From NCBI GenBank assembly GCA_030153785.1, contig JASKLF010000010.1, positions 1 to 64,000 on the forward strand: a stretch of 64,000 nucleotides of DNA, read 5' to 3'. Below the pieces are notes generated by a model. That model ran no database searches and was not told where the DNA came from. It saw only the letters and a program-made list of their open reading frames with translations. The DNA is from a bacterium (GTDB lineage: Bacteria; Synergistota; GBS-1). Made by a program: the position numbers and the translations under genes. Position 1 is the first letter of the stretch; each line of letters opens with the position of its first letter. Of this stretch, positions 1,167 through 23,273 are shown in pieces.

Positions 1167-2324
1167 TTATTCGATGGTAAGTAACCCCCATCCAAGAGGC
1201 TTCCGTATCCCGCCATCGTCCCAGAGAAGGCGAGTAACAGGAAATGGCTTAGATTTTTTATTTTTCCCAGATTTTTTATCTTTTACAATCCCCAGTTGAA
1301 ATACATCCCTCATCCTTTCAAACTCTTCGGGACTAAAAACCATGTCTATGGTCTTTCCGAAAAAGGTGGTTCCCTTACCCAAAAGTATTAAAGCAGAGTT
1401 TCCTTTGCCATTTATATACCTTTCAAGCTCATCATAAATTTTATTATAAATTTTAGTTCCATGATTTCCCCTTTCATGCTTGATGAAGTCTTTAGCAAAT
1501 TCATTAAGCAACTCGAATATCTTTAGAATGGCATCCCTTTCGTATCCCTTTAAAAACTCCCAAAAATCCGAAGCTAAATTGTAAAGCGGACTTTTTCCTT
1601 TAAAAAGCCTTATATCAAGCTCTACCTCTTTGCCCTCATCCAAACACTCAAGAAACATGGGAGGTTCACTTTTTTCTCTCTTGAGATGAAACGAATAACA
1701 CTGAAATATTTTGAAATCATCCTGGGCTAAGGGTTCGCTATCTCTGACCCTCAAAAGCTTTAAAAAGTCGTCCTTGGCATCATACTTTTCCGAACTTGTA
1801 AATCTGGCCGAAAACGTTTTAAATTGCAAACCTGCGTTCTGATAAGCAAATTTAGGATTCTTTCTCTCATGCCTTACAGCATTCAACACATCGGCGGTTT
1901 TTAATTTCTTTCGCTTAAAATAACAATAAGCTACAGCCGTTCTTATAGCCCCCTTAACGCTACTTCCAGGTATATATTTACCCAAAGCGGAGGATACAAA
2001 CCTTTCAATTTTGACATCTCTATTTTTTCCTGAAGCTGACTTAAAATAAATTTTACCCTTTATAAGACCGCGAACATCATCCTTAGTTATTATTCCATCA
2101 TTTTTAAGGTCATTAATAAAATCTCCTACATTCTTCCCTTCCTTAATGGACTTGACATAATCATCGACTAACCCTTCGTTCTTAGATAAAAGCTCAAAGA
2201 GCTTAAGCTGGTCTATCACATATATATAGTTATCCTTTACAACGTAATCAACTTTTGGGTAAAAAGCGTACTCCTTTCCACCACCTATAAATATTGGGGT
2301 TAAAGACCTAAGTTTAACCCTCAA
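1167..2324 (-). CDS. csm5: Type III-A RAMP protein Csm5
   Basis: LTPIFIGGG, YIPGSSVKGAIRTA, LGKGTTFFGKT, C-terminal PLGW; last gene of the csm operon. Confidence 0.9.
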   Translation of the reverse strand: MRVKLRSLTPIFIGGGKEYAFYPKVDYVVKDNYIYVIDQLKLFELLSKNEGLVDDYVKSIKEGKNVGDFINDLKNDGIITKDDVRGLIKGKIYFKSASGKNRDVKIERFVSSALGKYIPGSSVKGAIRTAVAYCYFKRKKLKTADVLNAVRHERKNPKFAYQNAGLQFKTFSARFTSSEKYDAKDDFLKLLRVRDSEPLAQDDFKIFQCYSFHLKREKSEPPMFLECLDEGKEVELDIRLFKGKSPLYNLASDFWEFLKGYERDAILKIFELLNEFAKDFIKHERGNHGTKIYNKIYDELERYINGKGNSALILLGKGTTFFGKTIDMVFSPEEFERMRDVFQLGIVKDKKSGKNKKSKPFPVTRLLWDDGGIRKPLGWGLLTIE

Positions 2325-3310
2325 TTTACATCACCTACCGGAACGAGAAACGACTTTCCATTTCTAAAAATCCGAATATCTCCGGACTTCTCCTCAAAAA
2401 GCCTTCCTTTAACCTCACCCTTGTAAAAGGATCCTTCAGAAAGCATCATCACCCTTGACTTTTTAATGCTCCTTCCCCCTCCCATATAAACAAATCCGTC
2501 ATCCTTAACCAAAGAAAAGTAACATACATTGTCAATCTCATCCCTTAAAGGATAGACACGGGAAAGTCCCACATAGCCTACCACACTTTTAACCTGAGGA
2601 AAGATATTTCTCTCTTCTATCTCAAGCCTATTGAAAATCCCCATTCCCTCGCTTCTTCCCCCGCCAAGCCCTTCATCAGCGATGAACTTAACAACACTAA
2701 TCAGCTTCTCCTTCCAATATTCAGAAAGCTCACAGATAAAGTAAAATCCCAACGGATATGCGACCAATATTTCATTCGTAAAGAAAAGGTTTGAAGAGTA
2801 ATCTAATCTATCTATGGAAGCGTGAGGACGCTCCAGCTTAGCAAAAGGGAAAACCTTTTTAAGCTCCTCTTTTACAATACCGGGGACATAAAAAATATCC
2901 TCCCAAATTCCATCGATGGAAAAGTCATACCCATGATAAAAAGCCTTCTCCGATTCATCATAAACGATGCTCCTCCCTAACTCAAAAAACGCATCAAAAG
3001 ACAGCCACTTCACCTTTTTCACCTTTTTGACTTCTGAACTTCTACCTTCAGCTTCCCTCTTCCGTCCATAAGGAAGGATTGGGCGCGGTAAAAATAGTAT
3101 ATCCTCGCCCCCCCACCTTAATAAGGGGAACAAGGAAGATATCTTTATCTCATCCTCAGAAACAGCTTTAGCAAAGTTACAAAGTTCCTCTTCCCCGTAT
3201 AACTCCACCATTCCATTTGATAACGCTCCGAATAACGATGAAGAGCCAAAACACAGGTCTTTCCATAATAGGGTGGTTTTCTCCTTCGGGAAAAGCTTAA
3301 AAACCATCAT
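2321..3310 (-). CDS. csm4: Type III-A RAMP protein Csm4 (Cas5 group)
   Basis: SSLFGAL, ISSLFP, RPHASIDR, DEGLGGGRSEGMG, EGS; position in operon. Confidence 0.9.
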   Translation of the reverse strand: MMVFKLFPKEKTTLLWKDLCFGSSSLFGALSNGMVELYGEEELCNFAKAVSEDEIKISSLFPLLRWGGEDILFLPRPILPYGRKREAEGRSSEVKKVKKVKWLSFDAFFELGRSIVYDESEKAFYHGYDFSIDGIWEDIFYVPGIVKEELKKVFPFAKLERPHASIDRLDYSSNLFFTNEILVAYPLGFYFICELSEYWKEKLISVVKFIADEGLGGGRSEGMGIFNRLEIEERNIFPQVKSVVGYVGLSRVYPLRDEIDNVCYFSLVKDDGFVYMGGGRSIKKSRVMMLSEGSFYKGEVKGRLFEEKSGDIRIFRNGKSFLVPVGDVN

Positions 3311-4179
3311 TTTCCTTCGCCCTTCTCCTCATTAACCCTTTCGCGAACCCAATTCACAATCTTCGCATCCTCCAACTCTGAAAGGCCCTTAAAGGAGTCT
3401 TTGTATCTTTCTTCGCTCTTTTCCCCCTCGTAAAAGGAACGCCCCCTAAAGGCAATACTTATATCCATAAAGCTGATAACCCCATGCCCCCTTGAGCCAT
3501 GTCCACCAAGATAATCATCTTCAAGAAGCCTCATACCGGTTATAAGAGTCTTTAAAAGGTCGGCATCCTTTTCACTCAAAAGCTTCACGCTCATTGAAAA
3601 GTTAAAACGGGCTCCCGCAGGAACCCTCTCTACCTGTCGCGGGTTAGCCACCGAGGTAAGCCTATCAATAGCATTTTCATATTTAACTTCACTATACTCT
3701 AATTCAAGAAGCTCAGCACTTTCAAATTTTTCCTTAAAATGCTCCTCATCTAAAAAAGCATCTTTAACCAAAAGGCGCGTAGGATTCAAGGGAAACTTAT
3801 TCTTATTTGCAGGAACACCGAAAAGCTTACAAATATCGCATTTACCACAGGCACAAGGCTTACCTTCAAATTCAATATTCTTATTATTTTTAACCTGCTC
3901 CGAGTATTTTCCCCAAAACTTACTTAAATTTTCAAAAGTATAATCACCTAATTTATAATCCCCTTTTCCATCCTTGAGCTCCAGCAAAGCCCTCATTTTA
4001 CCCTTTAAAGATGAACCCGGTATATATGGAACGCCAAAGGGATCTTTAACTACGGGAAGGTCAACACCACCAACCTCAAGCACTTCCTTGGAACCACCGA
4101 TATGAAGTCCCGTTTTAGCCTCTATTTTGCCCTCTATAATAACTCTCCCCATAAACCTTGGGAAAGTCATCATATACAC
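3307..4179 (-). CDS. csm3: Type III-A backbone RNase Csm3 (Cas7 group)
   Basis: TGLHIGG...GGVD (catalytic Asp position), PYIPGSSLKGKMR, ENAIDR, NPRQVERVPAG, DYLGGHGSRGHG. Confidence 0.95.
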   Translation of the reverse strand: MYMMTFPRFMGRVIIEGKIEAKTGLHIGGSKEVLEVGGVDLPVVKDPFGVPYIPGSSLKGKMRALLELKDGKGDYKLGDYTFENLSKFWGKYSEQVKNNKNIEFEGKPCACGKCDICKLFGVPANKNKFPLNPTRLLVKDAFLDEEHFKEKFESAELLELEYSEVKYENAIDRLTSVANPRQVERVPAGARFNFSMSVKLLSEKDADLLKTLITGMRLLEDDYLGGHGSRGHGVISFMDISIAFRGRSFYEGEKSEERYKDSFKGLSELEDAKIVNWVRERVNEEKGEGK

Positions 4180-4184
4180 ACCCC

Positions 4185-4580
4185 CTATCCTTTATAAACC
4201 TTTTTATAACAAACAAACATCTTCATAAACTCTTTAAAATCCCTTAGGTCTTTCTCCTCCTTAACTTTCTTAATAATAGAATCTAAAAAGTCAGTTAACG
4301 AACTTATATCGTTTCTCGCTCCAACATAAGCCAATAAGGGTCTTAAGGACACTAACTCTTTGGGGGCCTTTTTCTTCCTGACGCTCGAGTAGATATTTCG
4401 TACCTGAGTAAAAGTGGCCTTATCTTTTCTAGCAAACTCCTTTACTTTTTCATAAAATTCGTTTAGCTTATCTGTATTAAGCTCGCTCAGTCTAAGGACA
4501 TTTTCCGCTATCTCCTCTTTTAACTTTTTTAACTCCTCCATGTTATTATTAGTCGTTTTCCTCCCCTGCATTCTATCCAT
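4185..4580 (-). CDS. csm2: Type III-A small subunit Csm2 (Cas11)
   Basis: Small helical protein with TQVRNIY, LAYVGAR and F..FVCYKK; lies between cas10 and csm3; likely start ATG at 4580 after GGAGG. Confidence 0.85.
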   Translation of the reverse strand: MDRMQGRKTTNNNMEELKKLKEEIAENVLRLSELNTDKLNEFYEKVKEFARKDKATFTQVRNIYSSVRKKKAPKELVSLRPLLAYVGARNDISSLTDFLDSIIKKVKEEKDLRDFKEFMKMFVCYKKVYKG

Positions 4581-4582
4581 GC

Positions 4583-6925
4583 CTACCGCACCTCCCTTGT
4601 CGAAAGATATGCAAGGCATGAGGCAATATACAATATGGCCGGATTCCTAACCTCAACAGGAATCCCCCCTATCTTAACCTTCCCTTTAAAGGGAAGCCTT
4701 TCGTATAAACCAACAAGATAATCCCTAAAATCTTTGTCCTTCATATTTCTCAGAGCATAAACGAAAAGCCATGGTCTCGGAAATCTAAAGCTCTCACCTG
4801 TTTCTCTAATCTCCCTTGCAAAGGCGATTACCCTGAAAAGAGAGGCTCTTGCTTCAGAAAGCTCGGCTTTCTTGAAATTCCCCTTAAGCTCCTCCCACAG
4901 CTTCAAAACCGCCTCATATTCCTTCTTTGTAAAAACCTCTCCCCAAATAGCAACGCCGTTTTTCTCTACGTATTTACTTTTGGCACGGTGAAGCTCCTCC
5001 TCTACCGTTTCCGCAGCTCTACTAACCGGGTAGTGGGGTTTAGCAAGAAATATGCCTACAGAAAAGGTTATATTAGGGTTCGAAGCAACATATCTTCTGA
5101 AAGCCTCCTCTATAACTTTGGCAATCTCAAGAGCCCTATTCCATGGAGATATTATTAAAGCGTCGTCTCCTCCTGCAAAAACGAGATAATCCGTATCGGA
5201 AATTATCTTCCGAGGGACATACCTTTCAAAGAACAGAGCAAGCATCCTGCTTAAAGCAGCGACTCTTGAAATGGAATAATTTTCCCCCAAGCCCTCTTTG
5301 AAAAGCCTTCCCAAGCTGTCCACATCCAGCTTTACATACCCTAAAAGGTCATCTCCTTCGCTCCTCTTCGATAACTCCTCAAATGTCTCCTTAGGCTTTT
5401 TAAGTAAAGCATTTTCAAGGTAAATCCGTTTTCTCCTATCGTCATCTTCTAATCTGAAAGCCTCTATGGAGTAACCAAAAGCCTTGAACAATGAAAAACA
5501 ATCCTCAATTTCCGTTTCAGGCCCGGGTTCAATTTCCTTGAAACCAATATAATTTTTATCGCCAAATCGCTGTGATAGCTCTATAAAGGAATTACACATC
5601 TTGCATATCTTCTGAGTAGCCGGGGGCTCATCGTAGTCTAAAAGTAACCTTCTTTCATTTTCCCCACATATGACACAATGTTCCTCATAGGAAGCTAACT
5701 CCCCAGGCGAACCAAAGAGAAGCTCGTATCCACCTTCTATTTCAAAAACTTCCTTAAACTTTGCCATCTTAACCTTAGAAAGCTTTTCCTGAAGAAGCTC
5801 AACGGCTTTAGCAAAGTTCTCCTCATGCTTCATGAAGAAATACTTATAAAAAAGAGGAATCCAAGCCAAGCTTATATAAACCTTCCCTTTTAAAGCTTTC
5901 AGTAGGTTCTTAGATATCTCCCTTTTAATCTCTTCAAGCTTATTCTCAGCAGAGCGAGGAGCTAAAATCCAAAAAGTTCCACCACCGATGTAAAGTGTAT
6001 TGACGAGCCTTAAGTCAAGTTTTCTAATTATATATCTCGCCACAACTTCCATTAACAAGGACAAAAACAAGGACCTTCCCTTTAAACTTTTTGCCGCTCC
6101 CTTAGAAGGTATATCGAAAATAAAACTCTGAATTCCTGAAAGGTCTCCTCCCACAAGCAAAAAGTCAGCTTCCTCCCCAATTCTGCCATTCCCACCCCTT
6201 AATAAGAATTCCCTAACATCTCTCAAGCGACCTTTCCAGAAATCCTCTCCATAACTTTCTTTCGCTCTTATCTCATGCCAGTAAGCAACTGCTATAGCAG
6301 CTGTAACCCTTGAATGGTCATACAAAGAAATATCTGGTGTAGCTTTTTCAACCTGTGAAGGAACACACCATAGATATCTCTCAAGTAGAGCTAAAAGATC
6401 TTCCTCGGTTTCTATCGCTTTCAGGTCGGATTCGAAACCCTCCTCAAGCTTATCGTAGCTATATTCCTCCTTCTCCCGGGGGAAAACAATATCTTCCTCT
6501 ATGCAAAGTTTTTCAAGGGGATAATACTTCCCTTCTCCCCCGTCGAAAACTTGGCTAAAGACGCTTAGCAAAGGCTCCTTATAGTAATACCCACTTCCTT
6601 TTTCTGCGTCACCCCTCCTTTCACCTGCAGAAAGATAGTCTGAGGTCTGAAGAACTTCTTCCCAGAAGCTTTCAGGCGCGTGATGTCGCAACAACAGCTT
6701 CTCGAGCCCTTCAAAATCCTTTTCTGAAAAATTAAGCCTTTTAAAAAGAGGTATCCCCCCTTTAACGTTATTGAACCACCAATGAGAATACTTAGGGTGA
6801 GCCCAACCGGTATCTGCATCCCTATACTCTTCCTTTTGGGATATTTGCGAATACTTTTTAGTTCGCTCTATGAACTTCCCAATATCGTGCAATAAAGCTC
6901 CCAGATAAAAAACATTCAACTCCAT
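4583..6925 (-). CDS. cas10: Cas10/Csm1 with HD nuclease and intact Palm cyclase
   Basis: LLHDIGK HD domain, PDISLYDH, GGDLSGIQSFIF, CxxC...CxxC, KLDVDSLG, FAGGDD. Confidence 0.96.
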   Translation of the reverse strand: MELNVFYLGALLHDIGKFIERTKKYSQISQKEEYRDADTGWAHPKYSHWWFNNVKGGIPLFKRLNFSEKDFEGLEKLLLRHHAPESFWEEVLQTSDYLSAGERRGDAEKGSGYYYKEPLLSVFSQVFDGGEGKYYPLEKLCIEEDIVFPREKEEYSYDKLEEGFESDLKAIETEEDLLALLERYLWCVPSQVEKATPDISLYDHSRVTAAIAVAYWHEIRAKESYGEDFWKGRLRDVREFLLRGGNGRIGEEADFLLVGGDLSGIQSFIFDIPSKGAAKSLKGRSLFLSLLMEVVARYIIRKLDLRLVNTLYIGGGTFWILAPRSAENKLEEIKREISKNLLKALKGKVYISLAWIPLFYKYFFMKHEENFAKAVELLQEKLSKVKMAKFKEVFEIEGGYELLFGSPGELASYEEHCVICGENERRLLLDYDEPPATQKICKMCNSFIELSQRFGDKNYIGFKEIEPGPETEIEDCFSLFKAFGYSIEAFRLEDDDRRKRIYLENALLKKPKETFEELSKRSEGDDLLGYVKLDVDSLGRLFKEGLGENYSISRVAALSRMLALFFERYVPRKIISDTDYLVFAGGDDALIISPWNRALEIAKVIEEAFRRYVASNPNITFSVGIFLAKPHYPVSRAAETVEEELHRAKSKYVEKNGVAIWGEVFTKKEYEAVLKLWEELKGNFKKAELSEARASLFRVIAFAREIRETGESFRFPRPWLFVYALRNMKDKDFRDYLVGLYERLPFKGKVKIGGIPVEVRNPAILYIASCLAYLSTREVR

Positions 6926-6947: not shown

Positions 6948-7007
6948 TTGCTATGATAAAAAAAACCTGCTACCATAAACGATAGCATAAATGCCTTATT
7001 CTGTCAA
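6948..7007. promoter_or_regulatory. Overlapping divergent promoters for the csm operon (-) and the oxidoreductase (+)
   Basis: Minus: TTGACA(7007-7002)-N17-TATCGT with TGn extension. Plus: TTGCTA(6948-6953)-N17-TACCAT with TGn extension. Confidence 0.45.
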
Positions 7008-7029
7008 CAAGGAAAAGGAGGAATTGAAT

Positions 7030-10395: not shown

Positions 10396-10402
10396 ACAGC
10401 AT

Positions 10403-10891: not shown

Positions 10892-10920
10892 AACCGCCCC
10901 CCTCATTAAAAAAGGCACAA

Positions 10921-10950
10921 ATGGGGGTAGGATTTCAACCTACCCCCCAT
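10921..10950 (-). terminator. Stem-loop between tctC and tctB (attenuator or mRNA stabiliser)
   Basis: ATGGGGGTAGG...CCTACCCCCAT-like inverted repeat in the intergenic gap. Confidence 0.55.
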
Positions 10951-10956
10951 GTTACA

Positions 10957-11934
10957 CTATTTCTTCTTGAGATATCCACCAAGCTCAAGAACGGTCTTCC
11001 ACGCCTTATCCTGTTCCTCCACAAACTTTCTAAATTCCTCTCCCCTTCTTATCTTTATACCAAACCCGTTAGTTTCCATAAACTTCTTAAAAGCCTCAGA
11101 ATTGGCTATTTCAACTACAGCGTCCTCAAGCTTCTTCCTTATCTCTTCAGGTGTTCCCTTTGGAACGCCAACCCCTCTCCAAGTTCCAGCACTCCAGTTT
11201 ATACCAAGTTCCTTTAAGGTGGGAACATCAGGGAAAGCCGGGATTCTCTCGTCAGCCATAACGGCAAGCGCACGTGCCTGCCCGCTCTTTATGTAAGGAC
11301 CAGCTTCAGCTAATGAACAGGTAACCACGTGTATATGACCGCCCAAAAGTTCGGTTAGAGCCTGCGCAGCACCGGCAGTAGACGGTATCCATTTCACAGC
11401 ATCAACAGGAATCCCCGCTGCATGAAGCATTCCAATCCTCGCCAAATCCCAAATTCCTCCTGCAGCAACTCCGGAAAAGAGGTATTTGCCCGGGTTAGCC
11501 TTTATATCATCAAGAAGCTCTTTAAGGGTTTTCCAAGGAGCATCAGCTCTAACTGTAACCCCAGCCGGATCTTCATTAACCTGGGCAACATAATCAAAAG
11601 CCTCATAGGTAAGGTCAGTTAATCCCATCCAATGCATCGTAGCTAACTCCAAGGTAACTATCGTAATAGTGTAGCCATCAGGGGGCGCGTAAGCACCAGC
11701 TGCATGGCCAACTGCTCCAGCTCCTCCCGTTTTGTTAACCACTGTAAAGGGTTGTCCAAACTTCTTAGAAAGCTCATCTGCCAAGAACCTTGCGAGCCTA
11801 TCAGTTCCTCCACCGGCACCCCACGGACAAATCACAGTAACAGGTTTTTCAGGATAAGCAGCCCATGCAGAAGCAGAAAGCACGGGGATAAACGCAAAAG
11901 CTACCAAAACCGCTATCCATAAAAGCCTTCTCAT
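10957..11934 (-). CDS. tctC: Tripartite tricarboxylate transporter substrate-binding protein (Bug family)
   Basis: Signal peptide, YPEKPV, PWGAGGGTD, NKTGGAG, PDGYT, PDVPTLKELG. Confidence 0.93.
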   Translation of the reverse strand: MRRLLWIAVLVAFAFIPVLSASAWAAYPEKPVTVICPWGAGGGTDRLARFLADELSKKFGQPFTVVNKTGGAGAVGHAAGAYAPPDGYTITIVTLELATMHWMGLTDLTYEAFDYVAQVNEDPAGVTVRADAPWKTLKELLDDIKANPGKYLFSGVAAGGIWDLARIGMLHAAGIPVDAVKWIPSTAGAAQALTELLGGHIHVVTCSLAEAGPYIKSGQARALAVMADERIPAFPDVPTLKELGINWSAGTWRGVGVPKGTPEEIRKKLEDAVVEIANSEAFKKFMETNGFGIKIRRGEEFRKFVEEQDKAWKTVLELGGYLKKK

Positions 11935-12180
11935 CTTAACCCCTCCTTTTTAGAAAGTTACCACCTTGAAAAAGGTTAAAAGCTCTTCCCTTCTCCCACC
12001 CCCCTTTTTCAAAATATAACTAATAAGAAAATAGCTTCTATGTAAAGAATACCATTATCCATTCAATCCGTCAAGCATGAAATTTTCTTTATATAATCCT
12101 TCTAACCAAAATAGTCCCCTATAAAACTAAAACCTTCTATTTATCACGCATATTTACAAAATTCATAAACCAGATAAACA

Positions 12181-12213
12181 AAAATAAAAGGGCCGAAAGA
12201 TACTTTCGGCCCT
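12181..12213 (-). terminator. Intrinsic terminator after ktrA
   Basis: AGGGCCGAAAG-ATA-CTTTCGGCCCT, followed by a T-run on the minus strand. Confidence 0.75.
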
Positions 12214-12304
12214 AAAAAATAAAATCATACAATACTTTTATCAGAACCTATTGGTAAAATTAGAACACGGTTAGTGCTATAAAAACACCCCTCTTAAGAG
12301 TTTG

Positions 12305-13012
12305 TCAGGAGTTTTCCTCCACAAGTCGATTTACTTCCTCCACGCTTCCAACGAGATAAAGGATATCCTCTTCCGCAACAATATACTGAGGAGATGGCTT
12401 AGTTAATATCTTATCTCCTCTCATAATCGCAAGCAGGGTCACATCATATTTGTCGCGCAAGGCTAAAAATTCCTCCAGCGGTTTACCTAAAAATTTCTTG
12501 GGAGGTTTTATCTCGACTATTTTCAGTCCAGAGGAAACCTCCATAAAATCAATGATGTTGGGAAGAACCAGCTTCTGGGTTAACAGCTCCCCGTATTCGG
12601 CCTCAGGGAAGACCACAAAATCTGCTCCGATCTTTTCAAGAATTTTACGATGATAGGCACTTATAGCTCTCGCTATAACCAACTTCACTCCAAGTTCCTT
12701 CGCAAGAAGAGTTGTAAACACGCTTGCTTCCACATCATCCCCTATCGCCACTATAACTACATCGCTATCCTGAACCCCTGCATCTCTTAAAGCATCAATA
12801 TTTGTCGCATCAAGCACTTTCGCATAAGAGACGTGATCTTTTATCTCCTCTATTTTACGCTCATCTTTATCTATGGCCATTACGCTTTTTTCAAGATTCT
12901 CTAAAGCTATAGCCACAGCCATACCAAACCTGCCAAGCCCTATAACCGTAAAATTATTTAACTTGTTCTTTTCAAAGCCCAAATTCAACAGAATAGTGCT
13001 TAAGGAATTCAT
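12305..13012 (-). CDS. ktrA: Trk/Ktr K+ uptake regulatory subunit (RCK_N + RCK_C)
   Basis: VIGLGRFG Rossmann motif, LEKIGADFVVFPE. Confidence 0.9.
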   Translation of the reverse strand: MNSLSTILLNLGFEKNKLNNFTVIGLGRFGMAVAIALENLEKSVMAIDKDERKIEEIKDHVSYAKVLDATNIDALRDAGVQDSDVVIVAIGDDVEASVFTTLLAKELGVKLVIARAISAYHRKILEKIGADFVVFPEAEYGELLTQKLVLPNIIDFMEVSSGLKIVEIKPPKKFLGKPLEEFLALRDKYDVTLLAIMRGDKILTKPSPQYIVAEEDILYLVGSVEEVNRLVEENS

Positions 13013-13014
13013 AA

Positions 13015-14376
13015 CTATCCAACGCTCACCTCCTCTGTAGGATACTCCACCTGAGATTTTTTAGCAAAAAGAGAAACAAAGACCATACCAGCCGTCATGG
13101 TTCCGATTCTACCCAAGAACATGGTAAACACCAAAATAACCTTTCCAGCATCCGAAAGCTCAGAAGTAATACCTGTGGAAAGTCCCACAGTCCCAAAAGC
13201 AGAAACGACTTCAAAAAGACTCTCTAATGGGTCAAATGGCTCGCAGAGAAGAAAAAGAAACCAGGAAAATAAAACAAGGGATATCGACAGAACGAATATG
13301 ACAAAGGCTCTCTTCACAATCTCCCACGGTATAGCCCTATTACTGAATTGCACATTTTTACCGCCAAGTAAAACAGCATATATGCTCAACCATATAACCA
13401 TAAAAGTCACGGTCTTGATTCCTCCCCCTGTTCCTCCGGGAGATGCCTCTATAAACATCAATACTATTAAAAACAACAAAGTAGCAGGCTTCATTTTGCC
13501 AACATCCAGAGTGCTGAAACCCGCAGTTCTTGGAGTTACAGCCTGAAAATAAGAAGCCAAACATTTTCCTTTAAAATCTAAAGTGCCGAGAGTTTCAGGA
13601 TTACCACGCTCTAACAAAAAAAACATAACTGCCCCTATCAGAATGAAAAAGAGAGATACAATCAAAGCAATCTTAGAATGCAACCCCAAGTGTTTTTTTC
13701 TCCCTGAGAGCCTTTGAGTAATATCGTGGATAACGATAAAGCCTATTCCTCCAATCAATATAAGCATGGTCACCGTAAAAACCACATGAAAGTTGTCCAC
13801 ATACTTCTTTAAACTCTGAAAGTTACCCAAAATGTCGAAACCAGCATTACAAAAGGCAGAGATAGAGTGAAAGATGGCAAACTTTAAGCTCGTTAAAGGT
13901 GGATACTCCTTTACAAAAGCAAAATATAAGGAAATGGCCCCTAAAAGCTCAAGCGCAAAAACCGTAATAAAGACACCTTTCAAAAAGCTGATTATTCCTC
14001 CTATTGAAGTCGTATTCAAGGAATATTGCAAGACCAGTCTCTCTTTAACTTGGATATCCTTATTTAACATCACAATCATTCCTGTGGCGAAAACAGGATA
14101 GCTTAAAGCCCCTATTTGAATAAGGAGAAGTATAACCAGATGGCCAAAATCTGACCAATATGTCCCTGGATCAACAACCACAAGTCCGGTCACGCAAGTA
14201 GCAGATGTAGCAGTGAATAAAGCTATGAGAAAATCGGCAGGATCTCCAGAAGCAGAGGAAATAGGAAGCATTAGCAAAATAGTTCCGCAGAGGATTATAA
14301 CAATAAAGCTTAACGCAAAAAAAGCGGGAGGAGTTAGTCGCCTTTTCTTGGCCGTCTGACCATTTTCCACCACCAT
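13015..14376 (-). CDS. ktrB: Trk/Ktr K+ uptake membrane subunit
   Basis: FTATSATCVTGL, SAFCNAGF, TPRTAGF, SPGGTGGGIKT, SAFGTVGLSTG. Confidence 0.92.
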   Translation of the reverse strand: MVVENGQTAKKRRLTPPAFFALSFIVIILCGTILLMLPISSASGDPADFLIALFTATSATCVTGLVVVDPGTYWSDFGHLVILLLIQIGALSYPVFATGMIVMLNKDIQVKERLVLQYSLNTTSIGGIISFLKGVFITVFALELLGAISLYFAFVKEYPPLTSLKFAIFHSISAFCNAGFDILGNFQSLKKYVDNFHVVFTVTMLILIGGIGFIVIHDITQRLSGRKKHLGLHSKIALIVSLFFILIGAVMFFLLERGNPETLGTLDFKGKCLASYFQAVTPRTAGFSTLDVGKMKPATLLFLIVLMFIEASPGGTGGGIKTVTFMVIWLSIYAVLLGGKNVQFSNRAIPWEIVKRAFVIFVLSISLVLFSWFLFLLCEPFDPLESLFEVVSAFGTVGLSTGITSELSDAGKVILVFTMFLGRIGTMTAGMVFVSLFAKKSQVEYPTEEVSVG

Positions 14377-14559: not shown

Positions 14560-16995
14560 GTCGCAATCCCTTTTTCCTCAGGGAGTTTTTCCACAAAAGA
14601 ACAAGAAAGCTCTTTCAGGAAGGAAAGGCAGGTCAGTCGCAATCCCTTTTTCCTCAGGGAGTTTTTCCACTTTTAGTTATTAGGTTGGATAAGGTTAAGG
14701 ATTATGGGAAACATGTCGCAATCCCTTTTTCCTCAGGGAGTTTTTCCACATATATTGAGAAGCATGCGGAGGAGATATCTGAGAAGCCGGAGTCGCAATC
14801 CCTTTTTCCTCAGGGAGTTTTTCCACATAAAACACCAAAAAATACTACCTACGGGGCAGAAATAGGTCGCAATCCCTTTTTCCTCAGGGAGTTTTTCCAC
14901 AAACATTGGAGAGTGTGTAGGGTCAGAATCCCTTCTATGTCGCAATCCCTTTTTCCTCAGGGAGTTTTTCCACGGTAGTAGTTATGTTGAATTAGATTTT
15001 GGTAGGCATGTTAGGTCGCAATCCCTTTTTCCTCAGGGAGTTTTTCCACCAAAATTTTTTAATACATCTTTCTTTCCCACCACACCTATCACAATAGAGT
15101 GTCGCAATCCCTTTTTCCTCAGGGAGTTTTTCCACAAATATATGAATGCAATGAGTTTGCGTATTATCTGCAAATGTTTTGTCGCAATCCCTTTTTCCTC
15201 AGGGAGTTTTTCCACCTAAATATGAAGTAGTTTTTACACAAGGAGAATATGTCGCAATCCCTTTTTCCTCAGGGAGTTTTTCCACAGGCTTCAAAATAGA
15301 TGAAGGTTAGCCCGCCTCCCTCTTACTAGTCGCAATCCCTTTTTCCTCAGGGAGTTTTTCCACTGATGATGGAAAATGCGCGCTGGCTCCTGAGGAGGTT
15401 ACTCCTCAGGAGTCGCAATCCCTTTTTCCTCAGGGAGTTTTTCCACTGAAAAAGAGATTTGTGGTAGTTGAATTGTGGGACTGGAGAAATGTCGCAATCC
15501 CTTTTTCCTCAGGGAGTTTTTCCACCTTAAAGAGGAGGCGGAAGAAGATGTTAGGTAGTATGGTTAGAAAGTCGCAATCCCTTTTTCCTCAGGGAGTTTT
15601 TCCACAGGGAATGGTTAAAAATGGTAAAAGACGATGATTATTCGATGTCGCAATCCCTTTTTCCTCAGGGAGTTTTTCCACCCAAGGTGGAGGAAATTGC
15701 ACATTTCCTCCGCCGATTTTGATTGTCGCAATCCCTTTTTCCTCAGGGAGTTTTTCCACTAAAAGACAAAATAACTGTCAGTCAGTATAAAGGGTCGCAA
15801 TCCCTTTTTCCTCAGGGAGTTTTTCCACCCGACTTTGACTATTGCCCCATTCGTGGCAGCTATCAAAGCTGGTCGCAATCCCTTTTTCCTCAGGGAGTTT
15901 TTCCACACATGGAAGAAGTTGTACATTTCAACAAGTGATTTTGATTTTTGGTCGCAATCCCTTTTTCCTCAGGGAGTTTTTCCACACTATCCTTCTCCTG
16001 AACTAAAAGAGGAGCTGGAAAGATTGGGTCGCAATCCCTTTTTCCTCAGGGAGTTTTTCCACCTTTTCGCCTCCCTTGGCGTCCCGGCGCCCGTCCGGAT
16101 TATAGGTCGCAATCCCTTTTTCCTCAGGGAGTTTTTCCACCGGATGTTGGGCATGGCAAGACGGAGAGTGCGCGGAGGCTCCTGTCGCAATCCCTTTTTC
16201 CTCAGGGAGTTTTTCCACGAGGCAATTAGGTTGGAGCTGAAAGATGATTTTTGCTTTTAGTCGCAATCCCTTTTTCCTCAGGGAGTTTTTCCACTCAGCA
16301 AAAAGAAAGTAAAGAAAAAGAAGATAAAAGGTAAGTCGCAATCCCTTTTTCCTCAGGGAGTTTTTCCACTTTATACATGCAGTGAATTTTGCTACGCTTT
16401 ACAAGTCGCAATCCCTTTTTCCTCAGGGAGTTTTTCCACAAAGGAGGGGGTTGTGATGAAAAGGTTCTTGGTAGTTGAATTTTGGGTCGCAATCCCTTTT
16501 TCCTCAGGGAGTTTTTCCACTCAAAGGGGGGATTAATAATGAAAAAGAGGTTTCTCGTGATTGAAGTCGCAATCCCTTTTTCCTCAGGGAGTTTTTCCAC
16601 GGAATATTCTTTGGAAGTTTACACAACAAACGAGTTTTGCTAGTCGCAATCCCTTTTTCCTCAGGGAGTTTTTCCACGTACGGAACCATGTTGGTTTGGG
16701 ACAGGTATAGTTCCAAACCAAGTCGCAATCCCTTTTTCCTCAGGGAGTTTTTCCACTGGAAGGAGAAGGCAATAAATAAGGGTTTAGGTAGGATAGCGTC
16801 TGGGTCGCAATCCCTTTTTCCTCAGGGAGTTTTTCCACAGGTGATAGGAAAATGAAGGGTATGACGATCTCCTTTAGATGGTCGCAATCCCTTTTTCCTC
16901 AGGGAGTTTTTCCACAATATTGATGATGGGCATATTGTTTATGCATTATATGCCGATTGAGTCGCAATCCCTTTTTCCTCAGGGAGTTTTTCCAC
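14560..16995 (-). CRISPR. CRISPR array, 32 identical 35-nt repeats and 31 spacers of 34-51 nt
   Basis: Transcribed repeat GTGGAAAAACTCCCTGAGGAAAAAGGGATTGCGAC with a TCCCT/AGGGA stem and ATTGCGAC 3' handle; leader on the cas2 side, terminator on the other side. Confidence 0.99.
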
Positions 16996-17281
16996 CCCCA
17001 AGGGGGGTGGAAAAACAAAAACGCTTTAAAAAGGACAAGTTTTTGTTCGCTAATACCGAAAAACTCGAGTGATACCTCTTTCAAATTCTACCGTGAATTG
17101 CTAAACAACTTAGGCATGGAAAAGCGTTGATATTGCTAAACTCCGAATTCCTCAGATGTCTCACGAAATTATTTAATTTTTTCCATGTCAGTATCATCCG
17201 AGGATTGTATAAACAATATTTAATTGTCAAAGTTCATCCTAAAAGGTGCTTTTCGCCTCTTTTATAATGATATCACTAACA
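16996..17281 (-). promoter_or_regulatory. CRISPR leader
   Basis: AT-rich non-coding region between cas2 and the first repeat; possible TTGACA-N15-TACAAT (short spacing) near 17204-17230. Confidence 0.75.
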
Positions 17282-17566
17282 TTAAATTATGTCTATCTCT
17301 CCTTCCTCTAAACTTGGTGTCTTTCCTATGAACTCTATCGTTTCCACACATCTTTTACACAGCAGGTAAAATCTCACAGAATCGGTTTCCATATCTATAA
17401 TGGAAGAAGCCTTCCTCTTTATCTCTATAATAAGCTTTTCATCAACATAGCATTCAAATACGCTTTTCTGGACTCTTACGCCATATCTTTCAAGAAGCTT
17501 TGCCATCATCTCTCTCTTTTTATCGTCACTTATGTCGTAGGATATAACATAATACCTCTTACTCAT
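17282..17566 (-). CDS. cas2: CRISPR-associated Cas2
   Basis: YVISYDISDDKKR, GVRVQKSVFEC, DSVRFYLLC. Confidence 0.97.
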   Translation of the reverse strand: MSKRYYVISYDISDDKKREMMAKLLERYGVRVQKSVFECYVDEKLIIEIKRKASSIIDMETDSVRFYLLCKRCVETIEFIGKTPSLEEGEIDII

Positions 17567-18543
17567 GGCCTTAGTATATACGAAGAATAAGTAGACTCCC
17601 CTTTTATCGCTTTGGACAAGGCATGAACCTGCGCATTAATAGCGCTATCAAGCGAGCGTGTCCTAATTTGTCCTTGAAATTCGGCTATAACCTTTTTCAT
17701 TCCCTCATAAGTAAGGTAGACTCCTGCAGAATCCTCTTCATCCTCTTGAAAGAAGCGGAAATCTCCCAAAAGCAACATTCTTTTGTTGGAAAGTTTTAAA
17801 AATATTCTATCCATGCACGGTCTAAATTCTTCCATTAAATCAAGAGCTAAAGAGGGCCTTCCATAGTCTATGGAGTGATAGAACCCTATGTAAGGGTCGA
17901 GCCCCTCTTTATACAAAGCCGATTCCACAAAACTAAAAAGCAAAGTATAAAGAAAACTTAAAACTGCATTAGCCGGGTCTTCTGGAGGACGACGAGTCCT
18001 TGAGGAGAACTTAAATATATCGTTCTTAACGCATAAATTTAGTGCTCTGAAATAGGATTCCGCTGCAGTGCCCTCTATCCCCATCAAAGACTCCAAAGAG
18101 GGACAAAATTCTATTTTCATCAAGAGCGAACGCAAAAAGGAACATGCCTCGCCTATCTCCCGATTTTTCGTCTCCCACCTATACTTTTGCAAAAGAGATA
18201 TGGAGTTCCTTATTTTCCCCCTAACAAATTCCTTAGCCAGACTTAGCTTAAAATTCATATCCCTGCATTTCTCATACTGCATAAGCCTAAGAAAAATATT
18301 TTTAGAAAATTTGCCCTGGAGCCTTCCCCTATAATCACCCCTTGAAGAGAGAAAAACTACCTCTATCCCTTTTCTAAGAGAATAGCTTATCAGATAAGGA
18401 GATAAACGAACGTTCCCCAGTAGAATAATTTTTTCAACACTGCCATCGGCATAGCTTCTTACCACTTCATCACCTATCTTAACCACTATTCTACCTCCGT
18501 GAACGGAAAGTTCTGCACCTTGCTCCAAAACATAGACAACCAT
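17563..18543 (-). CDS. cas1: CRISPR-associated integrase Cas1 (no RT fusion)
   Basis: GIEGTAAESYF, RTRRPPEDPANAVLSFLY, GLDPYIGFYH, SLALDLMEEFR. Confidence 0.97.
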   Translation of the reverse strand: MVVYVLEQGAELSVHGGRIVVKIGDEVVRSYADGSVEKIILLGNVRLSPYLISYSLRKGIEVVFLSSRGDYRGRLQGKFSKNIFLRLMQYEKCRDMNFKLSLAKEFVRGKIRNSISLLQKYRWETKNREIGEACSFLRSLLMKIEFCPSLESLMGIEGTAAESYFRALNLCVKNDIFKFSSRTRRPPEDPANAVLSFLYTLLFSFVESALYKEGLDPYIGFYHSIDYGRPSLALDLMEEFRPCMDRIFLKLSNKRMLLLGDFRFFQEDEEDSAGVYLTYEGMKKVIAEFQGQIRTRSLDSAINAQVHALSKAIKGESTYSSYILRP

Positions 18544-18544
18544 T

Positions 18545-20326
18545 TTATCCTACATCCAAGATAATGTTTTCTCCATCGAACTTTAATGTATATCCTTCCA
18601 CACGAATCTTTTCCAAACCCCTCTCCTGCATATAGTTAGCTATGGAGTTTTCCACCCTTTTAAGCTCCATTTTAGCTTCCTCAAAAATCTTTCTAACCCT
18701 TATATATTCCATAACCATTACTAACTCATCGGGTTCTTCACGCTCAGCAGCTTTAAGATGAAGAAGAGGAGTTGGATAGCCTTCGATGTTTTTGCCGGCA
18801 AAACATTCCGTGCAGTTATCCTTAGTTATTTCAGGAATTTTGGACCTTATCTTAGGACAGCTCATGGGGTAACCACTTAGTTTGCTCTTTAAATAAACCC
18901 TTTTGTTCTGCACACCAGATAAGCTTAAAATAGAGTTCACCACCTTATCTCCATTAGAAAGGTTACCAAGCGTAAAGGTTATTACCGATATCTCAGGACC
19001 AGTTAAAGGAAAACCGCTTTTGCTCTTTTCATAAAGTTTGGCTATTACATTACACCTTGATTTTATGATCATAAACTCCTTATCCTCTTCCAGGATGAAC
19101 TCTCTCTGAGGAATATCTTCCTGAAGAACCTCTACAGAAACGGTCCTAATCAAGTTACCTAAAGATTTACAAGCTTCGCTAAACTCATCTTCAGAAACCA
19201 GCTCCATGGAAAGCAGATAAGATAGTTGATCCTCATAAGGTCCTCCATCGGGAGTTACAAATAAGCTTCTTCTCCCCGTTCTTTTATGAACCCCAAGAGG
19301 AAGCTTAATTAAGTTCCCTAAACCTCCGCTCTTAATGTAAGCTTGCTTGGGAAAAAGCTCGACAGAAACATCAACCGGAAAGGGTCTTAAAGACTCCATT
19401 AACGATAAACCGAATTCCCTAACTTTTAATGCCGATATCGGCTTTTTAAATAAAACCCAAACATGATAGCCCTTAAAACCAGAATATTCTATGTAAGACT
19501 TAAGTCCAAGTTCGTCGAAGCTTCGAGAAATTTTAGAAGCCAAAGAGATTAGCTCCTGGTCTATTCTGTTCTTTACAGAGGGAGAAGAAAGGTAAGAAGA
19601 AAGCTCAGCCTTCGCCACATCAATATCGAAAGCCAGAAAACAAACGGTGTTATCTTCTCTGAGCTGATATATCCCAAGTGTATAATTCCCGAGAATGTGA
19701 TTCTTTACCTGATTCAACGTTAACGGCTCCCTTATCGGCGTGAAACCTACCTCTCCCCTTGGCGTAACCCATTGTCTGGCATGAACTCCATCTCTTCCCC
19801 TAAAAAGAGAAAGATATTTAGCGAGGTGAATTTCGGAAGGAACCAAAAGCTCTTCAGTTATGATCTCCTGGTCCTTTTCTTTCAAACTTTTAAGAATCTC
19901 CTTAAAGATGGAGTCACCACTTAAAGATAATGCCTCCTCACAAAGGGCCTTCAGTTCCTCATACCTTTCTTGAATTTCATATATTCTTGCAAGCAAAAGG
20001 TAAAGGTGTTTTTCCTTGCGCCTGCCGAGAAATCTTTTTAAAAGCCTTTCGGCGTCATCAAGTCTCCCGCTGTCTATGTAGCTTTCTATTAAGCATTCAA
20101 GAGCGAACATGTTTTCTTCATCGTCCCTTAAAGAGAGACACAATTCTTGCTCAGCTAAGTTATTTAATCCCAAAGCCTTAAGGGTCTTAAAGGCTTCAAG
20201 ATGCAAGTTGCTATCAACCACGCCGTGAGCAGGAAAGCGGTTTTTTAATAGCTCCTCAGCTTCCCTTTGCTCCCCGCGCTCTATGAGAGCTTTAGCCTTC
20301 TCAAGAACATCTTTTAAATCCTCCAT
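18545..20326 (-). CDS. CRISPR-associated primase-polymerase (CAPP): TPR-like N-terminus, AEP core and Cys-containing PriCT-like domain
   Basis: Helical TPR-like N-terminus, FRGRDGVHARQW, AEP motif I FDID, motif II SGFKGYHVW, ELFPKQ, GNLIKLPLG, C-terminal Cys residues (RCNV, MSCPK, NCTEC); abuts cas1. Confidence 0.88.
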   Translation of the reverse strand: MEDLKDVLEKAKALIERGEQREAEELLKNRFPAHGVVDSNLHLEAFKTLKALGLNNLAEQELCLSLRDDEENMFALECLIESYIDSGRLDDAERLLKRFLGRRKEKHLYLLLARIYEIQERYEELKALCEEALSLSGDSIFKEILKSLKEKDQEIITEELLVPSEIHLAKYLSLFRGRDGVHARQWVTPRGEVGFTPIREPLTLNQVKNHILGNYTLGIYQLREDNTVCFLAFDIDVAKAELSSYLSSPSVKNRIDQELISLASKISRSFDELGLKSYIEYSGFKGYHVWVLFKKPISALKVREFGLSLMESLRPFPVDVSVELFPKQAYIKSGGLGNLIKLPLGVHKRTGRRSLFVTPDGGPYEDQLSYLLSMELVSEDEFSEACKSLGNLIRTVSVEVLQEDIPQREFILEEDKEFMIIKSRCNVIAKLYEKSKSGFPLTGPEISVITFTLGNLSNGDKVVNSILSLSGVQNKRVYLKSKLSGYPMSCPKIRSKIPEITKDNCTECFAGKNIEGYPTPLLHLKAAEREEPDELVMVMEYIRVRKIFEEAKMELKRVENSIANYMQERGLEKIRVEGYTLKFDGENIILDVG

Positions 20327-20340
20327 CTTTTGTCAGCCCC

Positions 20341-21795
20341 TTAATAGAGCCTGTCAAGCTCTTCCTTCAATATCCTATTAGCCTCATCATAGAAGTTCTC
20401 TTTAAAACCGAATCGTTCTTTAAATACCCTATAAACTTCCTCTAAATCTTTTACCTGCGATTCAGGAAATTGGACCACATCATGAGCAAAAGGCCCTTTG
20501 TTTCTTAGCTCTCTTAAGCGCTCTATCCTGGACTCTACGTCCTTATCGCAAATAATAGAATAGACACGCTCTATTTCTTCTATGGGCTTAACTATTTCCT
20601 CCCTCATCTTTTCGATGGCATACGATAAAATTGCCTTCTTTTCAACAAAATTCAGCTTTCCCTCTTCATCCGCCCCTGCCTTCTTAATTTTCTCGATGGC
20701 GCTCGATAAAATGCCCTTCTCATCGGGAAGATTCGCTTCATTCTTTAGCTTTTCCACTATCCCTTCCTCCTTTAGCTTATCAAATGCAACACTGAGCAAA
20801 AGATCTGTGAAGTTAAATAGGGCAGCACAGGCAGAGTGATATTCCCCTTTCTTCAAGTATATCTCCATCTCCTCAAAGGAAGCTTTTAAGCGAAATTTAG
20901 CATCGCTCATCTTCTGAATGCTTCCCAAAGTATTAGAGAAGTAGTCCCAAAATTTTTTCCTCCCTGGAAAATCCTTTTTAAGATCTCCTACGCAATTACG
21001 GGCATTCTTGAAGTCAAACAGCCTTCTTAATTTCATCGCCCTAAGGAGCGACTTTAGTTCGGAAGCCCCGAAAAGCCCGGACTCTTCAAGCTCCTTTAAG
21101 GCATCAGCATAGCTGTAAGAATCTATCAATCTCTTAATAACGGCCTTACGCTCAGAAAAAACGAGCTTTTCAAGGAATACACTTTCCTTAACCTGGGTTT
21201 CTTTCCCATCAGCGATTTTCATAAGGTTAAATATCTTCAATGGAGCGGGAATGTTTCTTAAAGCAAGTATCAGAGAGAAACACATCGCAGGGGTGCCCGC
21301 AGTAACCTGAACATAATTAACTGAAAAAGATTTAAGCTTCTCTTCCTCCTCATTAATGAAGTTCATGAAAAATTCGCTCATCTCCTCATGGCTCGCCGGA
21401 TTGCCCTTTATCACCTTAATGGAAACTTTCCCCTTAAAACCCTTCCCATAGCTCTTGGGTAGGAAATGGTCCTCTATAATTTTCGCAAGATATATGGTGT
21501 CCTGAGGGTGAGGAGCTTCCTGGTCTGTAGCAAACAAATATATGGAATCGGGAAGTCCCTTTTCTTCTTTAATACCAAATCTCAGGAAAGTAGGGAACGT
21601 GGGGAAAAATATTCTTACATCGGGAAGCAGAATGCTATCTTTCTTCTTATTAGTATCGAATTTTTCTTCAGAAAGTCTTAAATAGAGCTCTTTTGTTTTC
21701 TCTCTAAAATTGTTTCTTATATCTATCCTTTCCGAATTGCCGTTATATAATTGTAAATCATTATTACCAAGCGTATAAAGTAAACTCCACGTCAC
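20341..21795 (-). CDS. CARF-HEPN cOA-activated ribonuclease (Csm6/Csx1-like)
   Basis: CARF motifs YTLGNND, ATDQ...DT, VTAGTPAM; helical middle region; HEPN RNKGPFAH; likely GTG start at 21795 after GGAGG. Confidence 0.8.
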   Translation of the reverse strand: MTWSLLYTLGNNDLQLYNGNSERIDIRNNFREKTKELYLRLSEEKFDTNKKKDSILLPDVRIFFPTFPTFLRFGIKEEKGLPDSIYLFATDQEAPHPQDTIYLAKIIEDHFLPKSYGKGFKGKVSIKVIKGNPASHEEMSEFFMNFINEEEEKLKSFSVNYVQVTAGTPAMCFSLILALRNIPAPLKIFNLMKIADGKETQVKESVFLEKLVFSERKAVIKRLIDSYSYADALKELEESGLFGASELKSLLRAMKLRRLFDFKNARNCVGDLKKDFPGRKKFWDYFSNTLGSIQKMSDAKFRLKASFEEMEIYLKKGEYHSACAALFNFTDLLLSVAFDKLKEEGIVEKLKNEANLPDEKGILSSAIEKIKKAGADEEGKLNFVEKKAILSYAIEKMREEIVKPIEEIERVYSIICDKDVESRIERLRELRNKGPFAHDVVQFPESQVKDLEEVYRVFKERFGFKENFYDEANRILKEELDRLY

Positions 21796-21839
21796 CTTTC
21801 TACCCTCCCTTACCAAACAAAAATTCCTAATGGAGAAGC

Positions 21840-22330
21840 TCAAAAGAGCATGTCGGAAATATGTCTTCGAAGGAAATCCGCTTGACTGCGAAACGGCGTA
21901 GTTACACCAATAAAGATATGGAATTCTCGAAGTTCATTAATCTTGACCAGCAGTTTTTTAACCACTTCCGCTTCCTCATAATTTATGTTGTTCCTCTCAG
22001 CCCCTTCCGTGTGAATCCAGAGTATCCCTTGAAAATCTTTAAATCTTTGGTGAATCGAATATCACAAAACCTCTTATGTGACTAAACTCGGGAGAAAAAA
22101 AACCGATTCAAGCCCGTTTTTAAGGAGGTTAAGGAGATCGAATTTATAGGGAGGTTATTGGAAATTATAAGCGAATCAGGAATAGAAGATAGAATATTGG
22201 GCTGGACTACCAGATTCAGGTTCACCCCGTCTAAAGAGGAAAATCTCCTTCTAAGAGGCTCAAAAATGACACCATAGGCGCGTCGCTCATGATCAAATCC
22301 AAAATCAGAAACTAAAGGGGAACGAAACAT
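21840..22330 (-). pseudogene. Degenerate superfamily-1 (UPF1/DNA2-like, AAA_12-type) helicase remnant
   Basis: Minus frame 22061-21840 reads GILWIHTEGAERNNINYEEAEVVKKLL...IGVTTPFRSQADFLRRHI*. It has no SD-linked start and there are in-frame stops just upstream. Confidence 0.6.
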
Positions 22331-22337
22331 AAAAATG

Positions 22338-23273
22338 TCACCCCGCGACGCTTAAACTACCCAAAGCCACCCTCCCGAAACCAAATGTCGTGTTTTTGCC
22401 CACATGAAGCTCCCTCATAGCTCTCAAATAGGGTAAGAGAAAAGCGAAAACGGGCTTGTACTTTACACTTCCCATAACTCCGTAAAAAGGAATCCTTCGC
22501 CTTTGCCTATGGGAAAACCTTTCAAAAATCCCCTCGTTTAATGAAAAGCTTACTATGTTAACTTCGTCAAGCATACTCAATACATCTTTAAAAGGATACT
22601 GGCCATCTCCTCCACAGTGGAAGTAATCTAAAAGAACTATTCTCCTAAAGAAATTCCTCATCAGGGCAGAAAATTGCGGAATATCTAAAACCTCTCCATT
22701 AAAAACAAGCCTTAAGGGAGACTCTAAGATAAGCTCTACCAAAAATGGGGATAAATCCTCATCAAGGTCAAATTTAAGATAGTTATAGTCCTCTGTAGGG
22801 AAATCTATGCCATCACCCTTAAAAAGGTTTTTCCCGTTAAATGATAAGGAGTTAATCTCAAAATCCAAACTTCTCAATACATTCGAAAAGCAATAAGCAA
22901 AGTAAGGAAGATATTCGTTAGCTCTACCAATAAGGGTTAACTCTATGATTACCTTATCCCCTTCGGCGAGGGAAAGGTTCTTGAATGGAAAGTATATAAC
23001 AAAAGGGCGGGGAGCAGTTTCGTATTTACGCATGATTTTAGTTAGAGGCGGCGGAGAAGTTTCAAAAATTATGGCATAAGGACAGGAGGTCCTGAGCATA
23101 CATTTTATGCAATTGGAAGCCTTTCTTATACACACGAGCCTCCTAAATTCTGCTCCAAATTTGCCCCGCAATACGTTAGACCCAAAAGGCCCCATCTTCC
23201 TATCTTTCTTAGATATACATTCTAAGTCATATTTTCTCCAGTAAAGCATCCTCCAATAGCACCTCTCCCCCAT
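22338..23273 (-). CDS. cas6: Cas6 pre-crRNA processing endoribonuclease
   Basis: GSNVLRGKFG, Cys cluster, PRPFV, C-terminal G-loop LHVGKNTTFGFG; true start may be 23249. Confidence 0.9.
   Translation of the reverse strand: MGERCYWRMLYWRKYDLECISKKDRKMGPFGSNVLRGKFGAEFRRLVCIRKASNCIKCMLRTSCPYAIIFETSPPPLTKIMRKYETAPRPFVIYFPFKNLSLAEGDKVIIELTLIGRANEYLPYFAYCFSNVLRSLDFEINSLSFNGKNLFKGDGIDFPTEDYNYLKFDLDEDLSPFLVELILESPLRLVFNGEVLDIPQFSALMRNFFRRIVLLDYFHCGGDGQYPFKDVLSMLDEVNIVSFSLNEGIFERFSHRQRRRIPFYGVMGSVKYKPVFAFLLPYLRAMRELHVGKNTTFGFGRVALGSLSVAG

Follow-up and report, generated by a model that had tools for sequence, protein, structure and literature searches.

The window examined here, a stretch of 64 kb of DNA, carries a CRISPR array of 32 identical repeats (35 nt) and 31 spacers of 34–51 nt, with cas genes on both sides (Table 1). 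Two gene blocks, csm1–5 (1167–6925) and cas2–cas1–CAPP–CARF-HEPN–cas6 (17282–23273), lie entirely on the minus strand. The gene content assigns the predicted system to type III-A: Csm1 with both HD and GGDD motifs, Csm2–5, Cas6, Cas1, Cas2 and a CARF effector. The putative CRISPR-associated primase–polymerase (CAPP) adjoins cas1–cas2, passes the NCBIfam cut-off and contains DxD and SGxKGxH motifs; profile score, catalytic motifs and gene position thus all place it in type A1. The same arrangement, in which a type III locus has a primase–polymerase next to cas1 and cas2, appears in the accessible part of the paper describing CAPP type A (PMC8211822). About 7.6 kb of transport and metabolic genes (6991–14376) separate the csm operon from the array, and a macro-domain gene (520–894) lies directly downstream of csm5. 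In the host assembly (G000, 95.7% complete) we found no second array, no cas3 over the cut-off and no reverse transcriptase.

Table 1 Features of the type III-A locus and of the spacers discussed in the text (positions in the window; residues and scores refer to P0001)
Feature	Position	Strand	Description
csm2, csm3, csm4, csm5	1167..4619	-	Profile matches
cas10/csm1	4583..6925	-	HD motif near N-terminus and GGDD motif
CRISPR array	14560..16995	-	32 repeats and 31 spacers; S1 at low end, inferred oldest
S1	14595..14635	+	Non-CRISPR contigs matched with 2 differences in 3/4 runs examined
S5	14901..14938	+	Perfect self match to host gene, G000:C4:135911-135948
S8	15136..15180	+	Residues 122–135; score 45; oldest of the 13
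S11	15364..15411	+	Residues 86–100; score 66
S12	15447..15490	+	Residues 15–28; score 71, 11/14 identical
S14	15606..15646	+	Residues 107–119; score 45; out-of-query, new relative to earlier groups
S15	15682..15724	+	Residues 55–68; score 72, 12/14 identical; out-of-query
S17	15829..15871	+	Residues 66–78; score 60; out-of-query
S18	15907..15950	+	Residues 56–69; score 54; out-of-query
S21	16141..16183	+	Residues 81–94; score 60
S24	16370..16404	+	Residues 123–133; score 28, weakest, just below null 99th percentile of 29
S25	16440..16485	+	RBS and start, another allele; residues 10–24; score 43
S26	16521..16565	+	RBS, start codon and first codons; residues 8–22; score 44
S27	16601..16642	+	Residues 117–129; score 42
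S28	16678..16721	+	Residues 42–55; score 42; out-of-query, new relative to earlier groups
Presumed leader	16996..17281	-	Sequence between array and cas2
cas1 and cas2	17282..18543	-	
CAPP type A1	18545..20326	-	NF040561, 321.7 bits (cut-off 200)
CARF-HEPN effector	20341..21843	-	Csx1/Csm6-like
cas6	22338..23273	-	

We infer the minus strand to be the crRNA strand, on account of the AT-rich leader-like stretch towards cas2, the uniform strand bias of 13 spacers described below and the harmless orientation that results for S5. This spacer matches a host gene which, by likeness, we take to encode phenylalanyl-tRNA synthetase alpha; its crRNA should have the same sense as the host mRNA and hence be inert, and such an orientation of a self-spacer fits an active RNA-targeting system. 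One of the contigs matching S1 stands at host depth (68.6 versus 70.8) in a strain whose short array is devoid of S1; a DUF1156 methylase as the target of S1 was considered and not confirmed.

Parts of the window recur in 13 metagenome runs from five studies of subsurface, shale-gas and oil habitats, and the listed runs include no RNA data. All four runs that were examined contain cas1–cas2 and the leader, the latter with no listed differences. Short arrays with a different set of spacers occur in two of them, S22 being shared by one, from which we conclude that the spacer set of the window is largely strain-specific; no contig in these four runs covers the 13 spacers described below.

Thirteen spacers tile one gene

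A sequence-only reading of the array had proposed that at least 11 of the 31 spacers form four groups with alignable plus-strand translations, sampled repeatedly from homologous spots of a few small invader genes. When plus-strand spacer peptides were compared in ungapped BLOSUM62 alignments, seven of the 465 pairs, spanning ten spacers, scored at least 32, against a mean of 0.06 (maximum 1) in 300 dinucleotide shuffles and of 0.12 (maximum 2) in 300 draws from host coding DNA. Homologous clustering beyond chance is therefore real and the repeated peptide homology survives the shuffled control. The best DNA alignments between spacers reach 72–81% identity, and an RBS followed by a start codon occurs in 4/31 spacers, an enrichment that did not hold up (P 0.08).

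From eight peptides of groups A, B and D (alignment A5) we built a profile, which was searched against 1.84 billion representative proteins and returned a single match at E <= 0.001, the protein P0001 (E 1.7e-10), which is encoded on a 24.5-kb NCBI contig and has the sequence MGGENSNKGGSKKMKKRFLVIELWDWRAYDPSRCRNGGSYAFCKMLVWDRWDPTPRWRKLHISSSEFDYCPIRGTFDSCPGCWAFDNGECGLAPEELTPQEAAQEVREWLKKAVDQNYSLEIYYTPEFAYFLQRFFREGQQPSLFFIYLP. Twelve spacers score 42–72 against P0001, S24 scores 28 and the remaining 18 score at most 24, where shuffled P0001 gives a 99th percentile of 29, a 99.9th percentile of 33.8 and a maximum of 39. Five of the matching spacers (S14, S15, S17, S18 and S28, scores 42–72) were absent from the query and so confirm the match independently. 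The weakest of the set, S24, is tied in register to S8 (pair score 41) and S27 (32); S17, which at the pair level joins its group through a short overlap only, scores 60 against P0001. Thirteen of the 31 spacers, 42% of the array, thus target one gene, P0001 or its alleles. All four proposed groups exist, but their membership grows to 13 with the addition of S14 and S28, and they map along one gene instead of a few.

Along the gene the spacers follow the order S26, S25, S12, S28, S15, S18, S17, S21, S11, S14, S27, S8, S24. Because S25 and S26 contain an RBS and an ATG, the real start of P0001 is probably Met14, and the spacers then span positions -18 to +366 of a gene of ~411 nt (~137 codons). 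All 13 carry the mRNA sense on the plus strand; given minus as the presumed crRNA strand, all 13 crRNAs would be antisense to the mRNA.

The spread over the gene is even and without hot spots: eight pairs of spacers start within 25 nt of each other, compared to 9.7 expected from uniform placement (P 0.77), so the four groups are overlaps in the tiling of one gene and not the repeatedly sampled spots that had been envisaged. The start of the gene is covered by only three of the 13 spacers, which differ mutually, and likewise the end by three, implying that at least three alleles or paralogs were sampled. Overlapping spacers differ at 93 of 294 nt, or ~30% (one pair includes an offset 5' leader), which bears out the proposed sampling from different variants. 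The differences are not mainly synonymous, as had been supposed, since the overlaps comprise 33 identical, 24 synonymous and 28 non-synonymous codons. Nor are the group members dispersed along the array; they are confined to S8–S28, more tightly than random (P 0.007). In tests of closeness over ranges within the gene, consecutive spacers lie no closer to each other than in permuted order (P 0.64), and new spacers lie no closer to the nearest earlier one than uniform draws (P 0.78). The chance of finding 13 of 31 spacers in 430 nt under uniform uptake is 1e-3 if the target measures 3 kb, falls to 4e-7 at 6.6 kb and is 1e-13 at 24.5 kb.

Protospacer DNA was not found among phage and plasmid records, in 251–268 genomes of the phylum or in the viral contigs, where one chance match lies in an antisense frame, these collections being incomplete; it was not found in the host's own genome either. 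Two matches from a scan of similarly incomplete metagenome collections were rejected as chance, both being out-of-frame. Relatives of P0001 were absent among proteins of 82–263 and of 264–2000 residues, and neither a family assignment nor Acr homology emerged from Pfam, PHROGs, PADLOC, NCBIfam or PDB sequences; the Atlas is blank for P0001 and holds only unnamed clusters, under 0.9, for P0021. In the literature searched, mainly the main text of freely available papers, neither the P0001 family nor a CAPP system whose array tiles a single gene is reported. The predicted structure, strands followed by helices, is of low confidence (pLDDT 58.8), and this weak model matches no PDB fold above Z 5.6. 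Its sole viral fold match is a 106-residue siphovirus ‘zinc-ribbon protein’ (E 9.7e-4), a partly circular result as the model used the gut-family alignment described below.

Probable relatives in gut phages, and control arrays

A weak tblastn match (E 0.02) connects P0001 to an ORF of 112 residues in a gut phage, with a pairwise E of 5e-10; this ORF has 51 related proteins, one cluster member being named from Clostridium sp. AF34-13. With profiles of this family built without P0001, the protein scores 21.4 bits, with a maximum of 7.4 among 2000 shuffles, and 25.1 bits, with a maximum of 11.3 among 6538 host frames; at database scale the link has an E of 79 and is not significant. Taken together we regard P0001 as probably homologous to the gut-phage family. 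Two cysteines, Cys70 and Cys90, are invariant in alignment A9.

The genomic setting of the relatives was compiled from 22 loci, comprising 21 viral loci and the phage record. The gene comes first behind a sigma-70-like promoter in 20/22 and is followed by a helix–turn–helix (HTH) gene in 21/22, while a lysin gene ends at most 400 nt upstream in 17/21. At one locus, L106, a terminator-like hairpin precedes the relative and a palindrome covers the -35 box. Since 20 of the 21 loci are 78–100% identical to the query, they count as about one case. A first gene behind a strong promoter, with a lysin before and an HTH gene after it, suggests an anti-CRISPR-like layout. The acr–aca cassettes of temperate phages serve as the comparison here, and the relatives resemble them in the promoter palindrome, the HTH neighbour and, downstream in 2/21 loci, a truncated Cas8c-like gene; unlike such cassettes, neither the relatives nor P0001 have a sequence match to a described Acr or Aca, and the comparison is by layout only. 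The two phage-borne truncated Cas8c-like genes (L116:7496-8470 and L103:7354-8277) are flanked by small ORFs and HTH genes downstream of the lysin and are candidate type I-C inhibitors. The N-terminal half of an RNA 2'-phosphotransferase (L119:3625-3915) is found in the same kind of phage cassette.

Across 268 genomes of the phylum, csm1 is present in 22 and CAPP over the cut-off in four, including the host. This provided 12 control arrays of at least ten spacers, three with CAPP and nine in which no CAPP was found; six shorter arrays were dropped, and a genome of the same genus (G001), which has csm1 without CAPP, was left out of the controls, its array being cut at contig ends. At the strict score of 32 on the better strand the window has 15.1 homologous pairs per 1000, the highest of the 13 arrays. 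The three CAPP-containing controls (L046 3.3, L047 3.6, L048 2.0) are not more clustered than those in which no CAPP was found, of which L082 has 5.7, L074 4.0, L098 3.0, L093 1.7, L086 1.1 and L072, L080, L084 and L088 have 0. A looser end-overlap score, applied to nine arrays with one shuffle each, gives 19.4 for the window, 11.4 for L082, 10.7 for L047 and 8.2 for L046.

The runner-up on both scores, L082, belongs to a genome that is 71% complete (G232), and its array follows directly after csm1, csm3–6 and cas1. Without CAPP at the locus, the array (L082:16188-18940, G232:C5) tiles the start of one small gene: five spacers form a chain through a single reading frame, and further ones overlap pairwise. 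On contigs C10 and C56 this genome has arrays with a different repeat, which we take to be type I-C-like; they match the same gene on both strands, so that the control may not reflect type III alone. The target of L082 was not found in 79 genomes. Tiling at a CAPP-free type III-A locus means that CAPP is not required for it, and the part of the sequence-only reading that credited CAPP with the pattern finds no support; with few arrays to compare (three against nine), CAPP may still contribute. Two further observations come from the same survey. In a complete genome without CAPP, an array of at least 201 spacers lies beside csm genes (L098:7210-19989), and ~63 of its 199 distinct spacers fall into homologous clusters. 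At another locus (L097:3990-8603) a 1537-residue protein with partial matches to the RNA polymerase beta and beta' subunits is encoded beside an RtcR-like regulator and cmr and csm operons.

Accounting for the focus on one gene

Published type III systems, cited here from the portions of text available, offer two precedents. In Streptococcus thermophilus, type III-A uptake forms hot spots driven by early promoters, requires no csm or interference genes and favours whichever gene follows the lysin, and the covered regions hold acr genes (PMC13575424). In Thermus, type III spacers are selected by survival for a narrow early region; those against the phiFa terminal repeat show a strong bias in strand and position, and the authors propose that this hot region harbours an anti-CRISPR gene (PMC7515739, PMC6452258). 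We consider it probable, if by no means settled, that ordinary type III-A immunity accounts for the array in the same way, through an uptake bias for early genes and survival selection under repeated challenge by one diverse family of viruses or mobile elements. The P0001 gene would be the first behind the invader's earliest strong promoter; naive Cas1–Cas2 uptake would be biased towards the first genes behind early promoters, and survival would retain a spacer only if it pairs with the early transcript concerned. Older spacers would fail against alleles ~30% apart, each new relative of the virus leaving a new spacer in the same gene, and CAPP would probably only assist integration without choosing the target.

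This account draws support from the tiling of one gene, with five out-of-query spacers matching and the other 18 scoring at most 24, and from a concentration that is improbable even if uptake were uniform over 6.6 kb (P 4e-7). The even spread, the lack of closeness to earlier spacers and the tiling by a CAPP-free type III-A array point the same way, as does the position of the probable remote relatives behind promoter and lysin, which is that of natural type III-A spacers in the accessible portion of PMC13575424. In that system spacers accumulate on a small gene that stands first behind an early promoter, downstream of the lysin, natural arrays included. The fit is imperfect: the published peak is found 10–50 bp inside the gene and declines across the genes that follow, yet here the 13 spacers are even over one gene with only 3/13 at its start, their alleles are ~30% apart and CAPP is present. 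Similarly, the phiFa hot region extends over 6.6 kb and many genes whereas the region targeted here is ~0.4 kb, and no neighbouring early gene could be assigned to any of the 18 remaining spacers. The link to the gut phages (E 79), whose loci are near-identical and not independent, also tells against the account. The earlier suggestion that a diverse virus family is intensely targeted at one or two early, perhaps anti-defence, genes is thus supported and narrowed to one gene; the gene is probably of viral origin, and by analogy it may be expressed early and act against host defence, both attributes reaching it only via the remote relatives.

A function for P0001 could be added to this account. 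If its gene encoded an inhibitor of this type III-A system or its signalling, which we hold to be possible though rather unlikely, spacers against other transcripts would fail once the inhibitor was made, only those destroying its mRNA would be kept, and CRISPR pressure would drive the allelic divergence of the gene. One gene, not a multi-gene region, is in focus, and it encodes a small protein without a known family; the remote relatives sit in a cassette with a promoter palindrome and an HTH gene, some with the truncated Cas8c-like gene downstream, and Cas8 fragments of viral origin are known to act as inhibitors (bioRxiv 2023.06.24.545427, available part). The region is moreover the one in which PMC13575424 places acr genes. 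Against this, P0001 matches no described inhibitor in sequence, its structure model is of low confidence, the cassette was seen in gut phages with other hosts, its Cas8c-like neighbour would indicate type I-C, and position alone is able to explain the focus. On the most far-reaching version, which we put forward tentatively, P0001 would found an undescribed family of phage type III inhibitors, probably zinc-binding in view of the invariant Cys70 and Cys90, and the array would document an arms race, with spacers surviving only if directed at the inhibitor mRNA and the gene diverging meanwhile.

The divergence of the overlaps, at 93/294 nt, goes beyond what recent escape gives, and the ‘alleles’ might instead be paralogs in an invader with several divergent copies of the gene, or the invader might be a very small element of which the gene makes up a large part. 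In genome G232, too, a second kind of array matches its target gene on both strands. However, the contig that encodes P0001 is 24.5 kb long, and no second member was found among proteins of 82–263 residues, where paralogs on the contig should have shown; we deem this reading improbable. We give still less credence to primed-like acquisition, by which Csm on a partly matching transcript, perhaps with CAPP, would recruit Cas1–Cas2 to the same gene. The 13 spacers do form a run, S8–S28, that begins after the first one (P 0.007), the window array is the most clustered of the 13 tested, the looser score places the CAPP-containing L047 and L046 third and fourth of nine, and the available text of PMC9048733 counts priming by type III systems among the questions still to be settled. 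A run in time is also expected from a period of exposure to one virus family, and the closeness to earlier spacers that Csm-guided, CAPP-assisted acquisition had led us to look for is missing within the gene, while the CAPP-free L082 ranks second on both scores. The accessible parts of the literature report no priming in the type III-A system of S. thermophilus (PMC13575424) and propose gap filling and prespacer synthesis for CAPP, with no role in target choice (PMC8211822); none is supported at the window locus. Priming may yet act over distances longer than the gene.

Ordinary early-gene immunity thus remains our preferred explanation: the mechanism is most likely a known one in extreme form, and it is the family of the target gene that offers a new lead. 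The preference of type III systems for early genes has already been published and the mechanism is not new; the case is extreme in that 42% of an array is directed at several alleles of one 0.4-kb gene. The window locus no longer counts as evidence for priming guided by CAPP. The case shows that nothing more than spacer peptides is needed to retrieve an invader gene of which a single sequence is known among billions. Type III inhibitors described so far are few (PMC11662646), and the P0001 gene and its gut-phage relatives represent concrete, cheaply testable anti-defence candidates. Should the inhibitor family prove true, the tiling of one gene by type III arrays would be a general finder of anti-defence genes, even without a virus genome.
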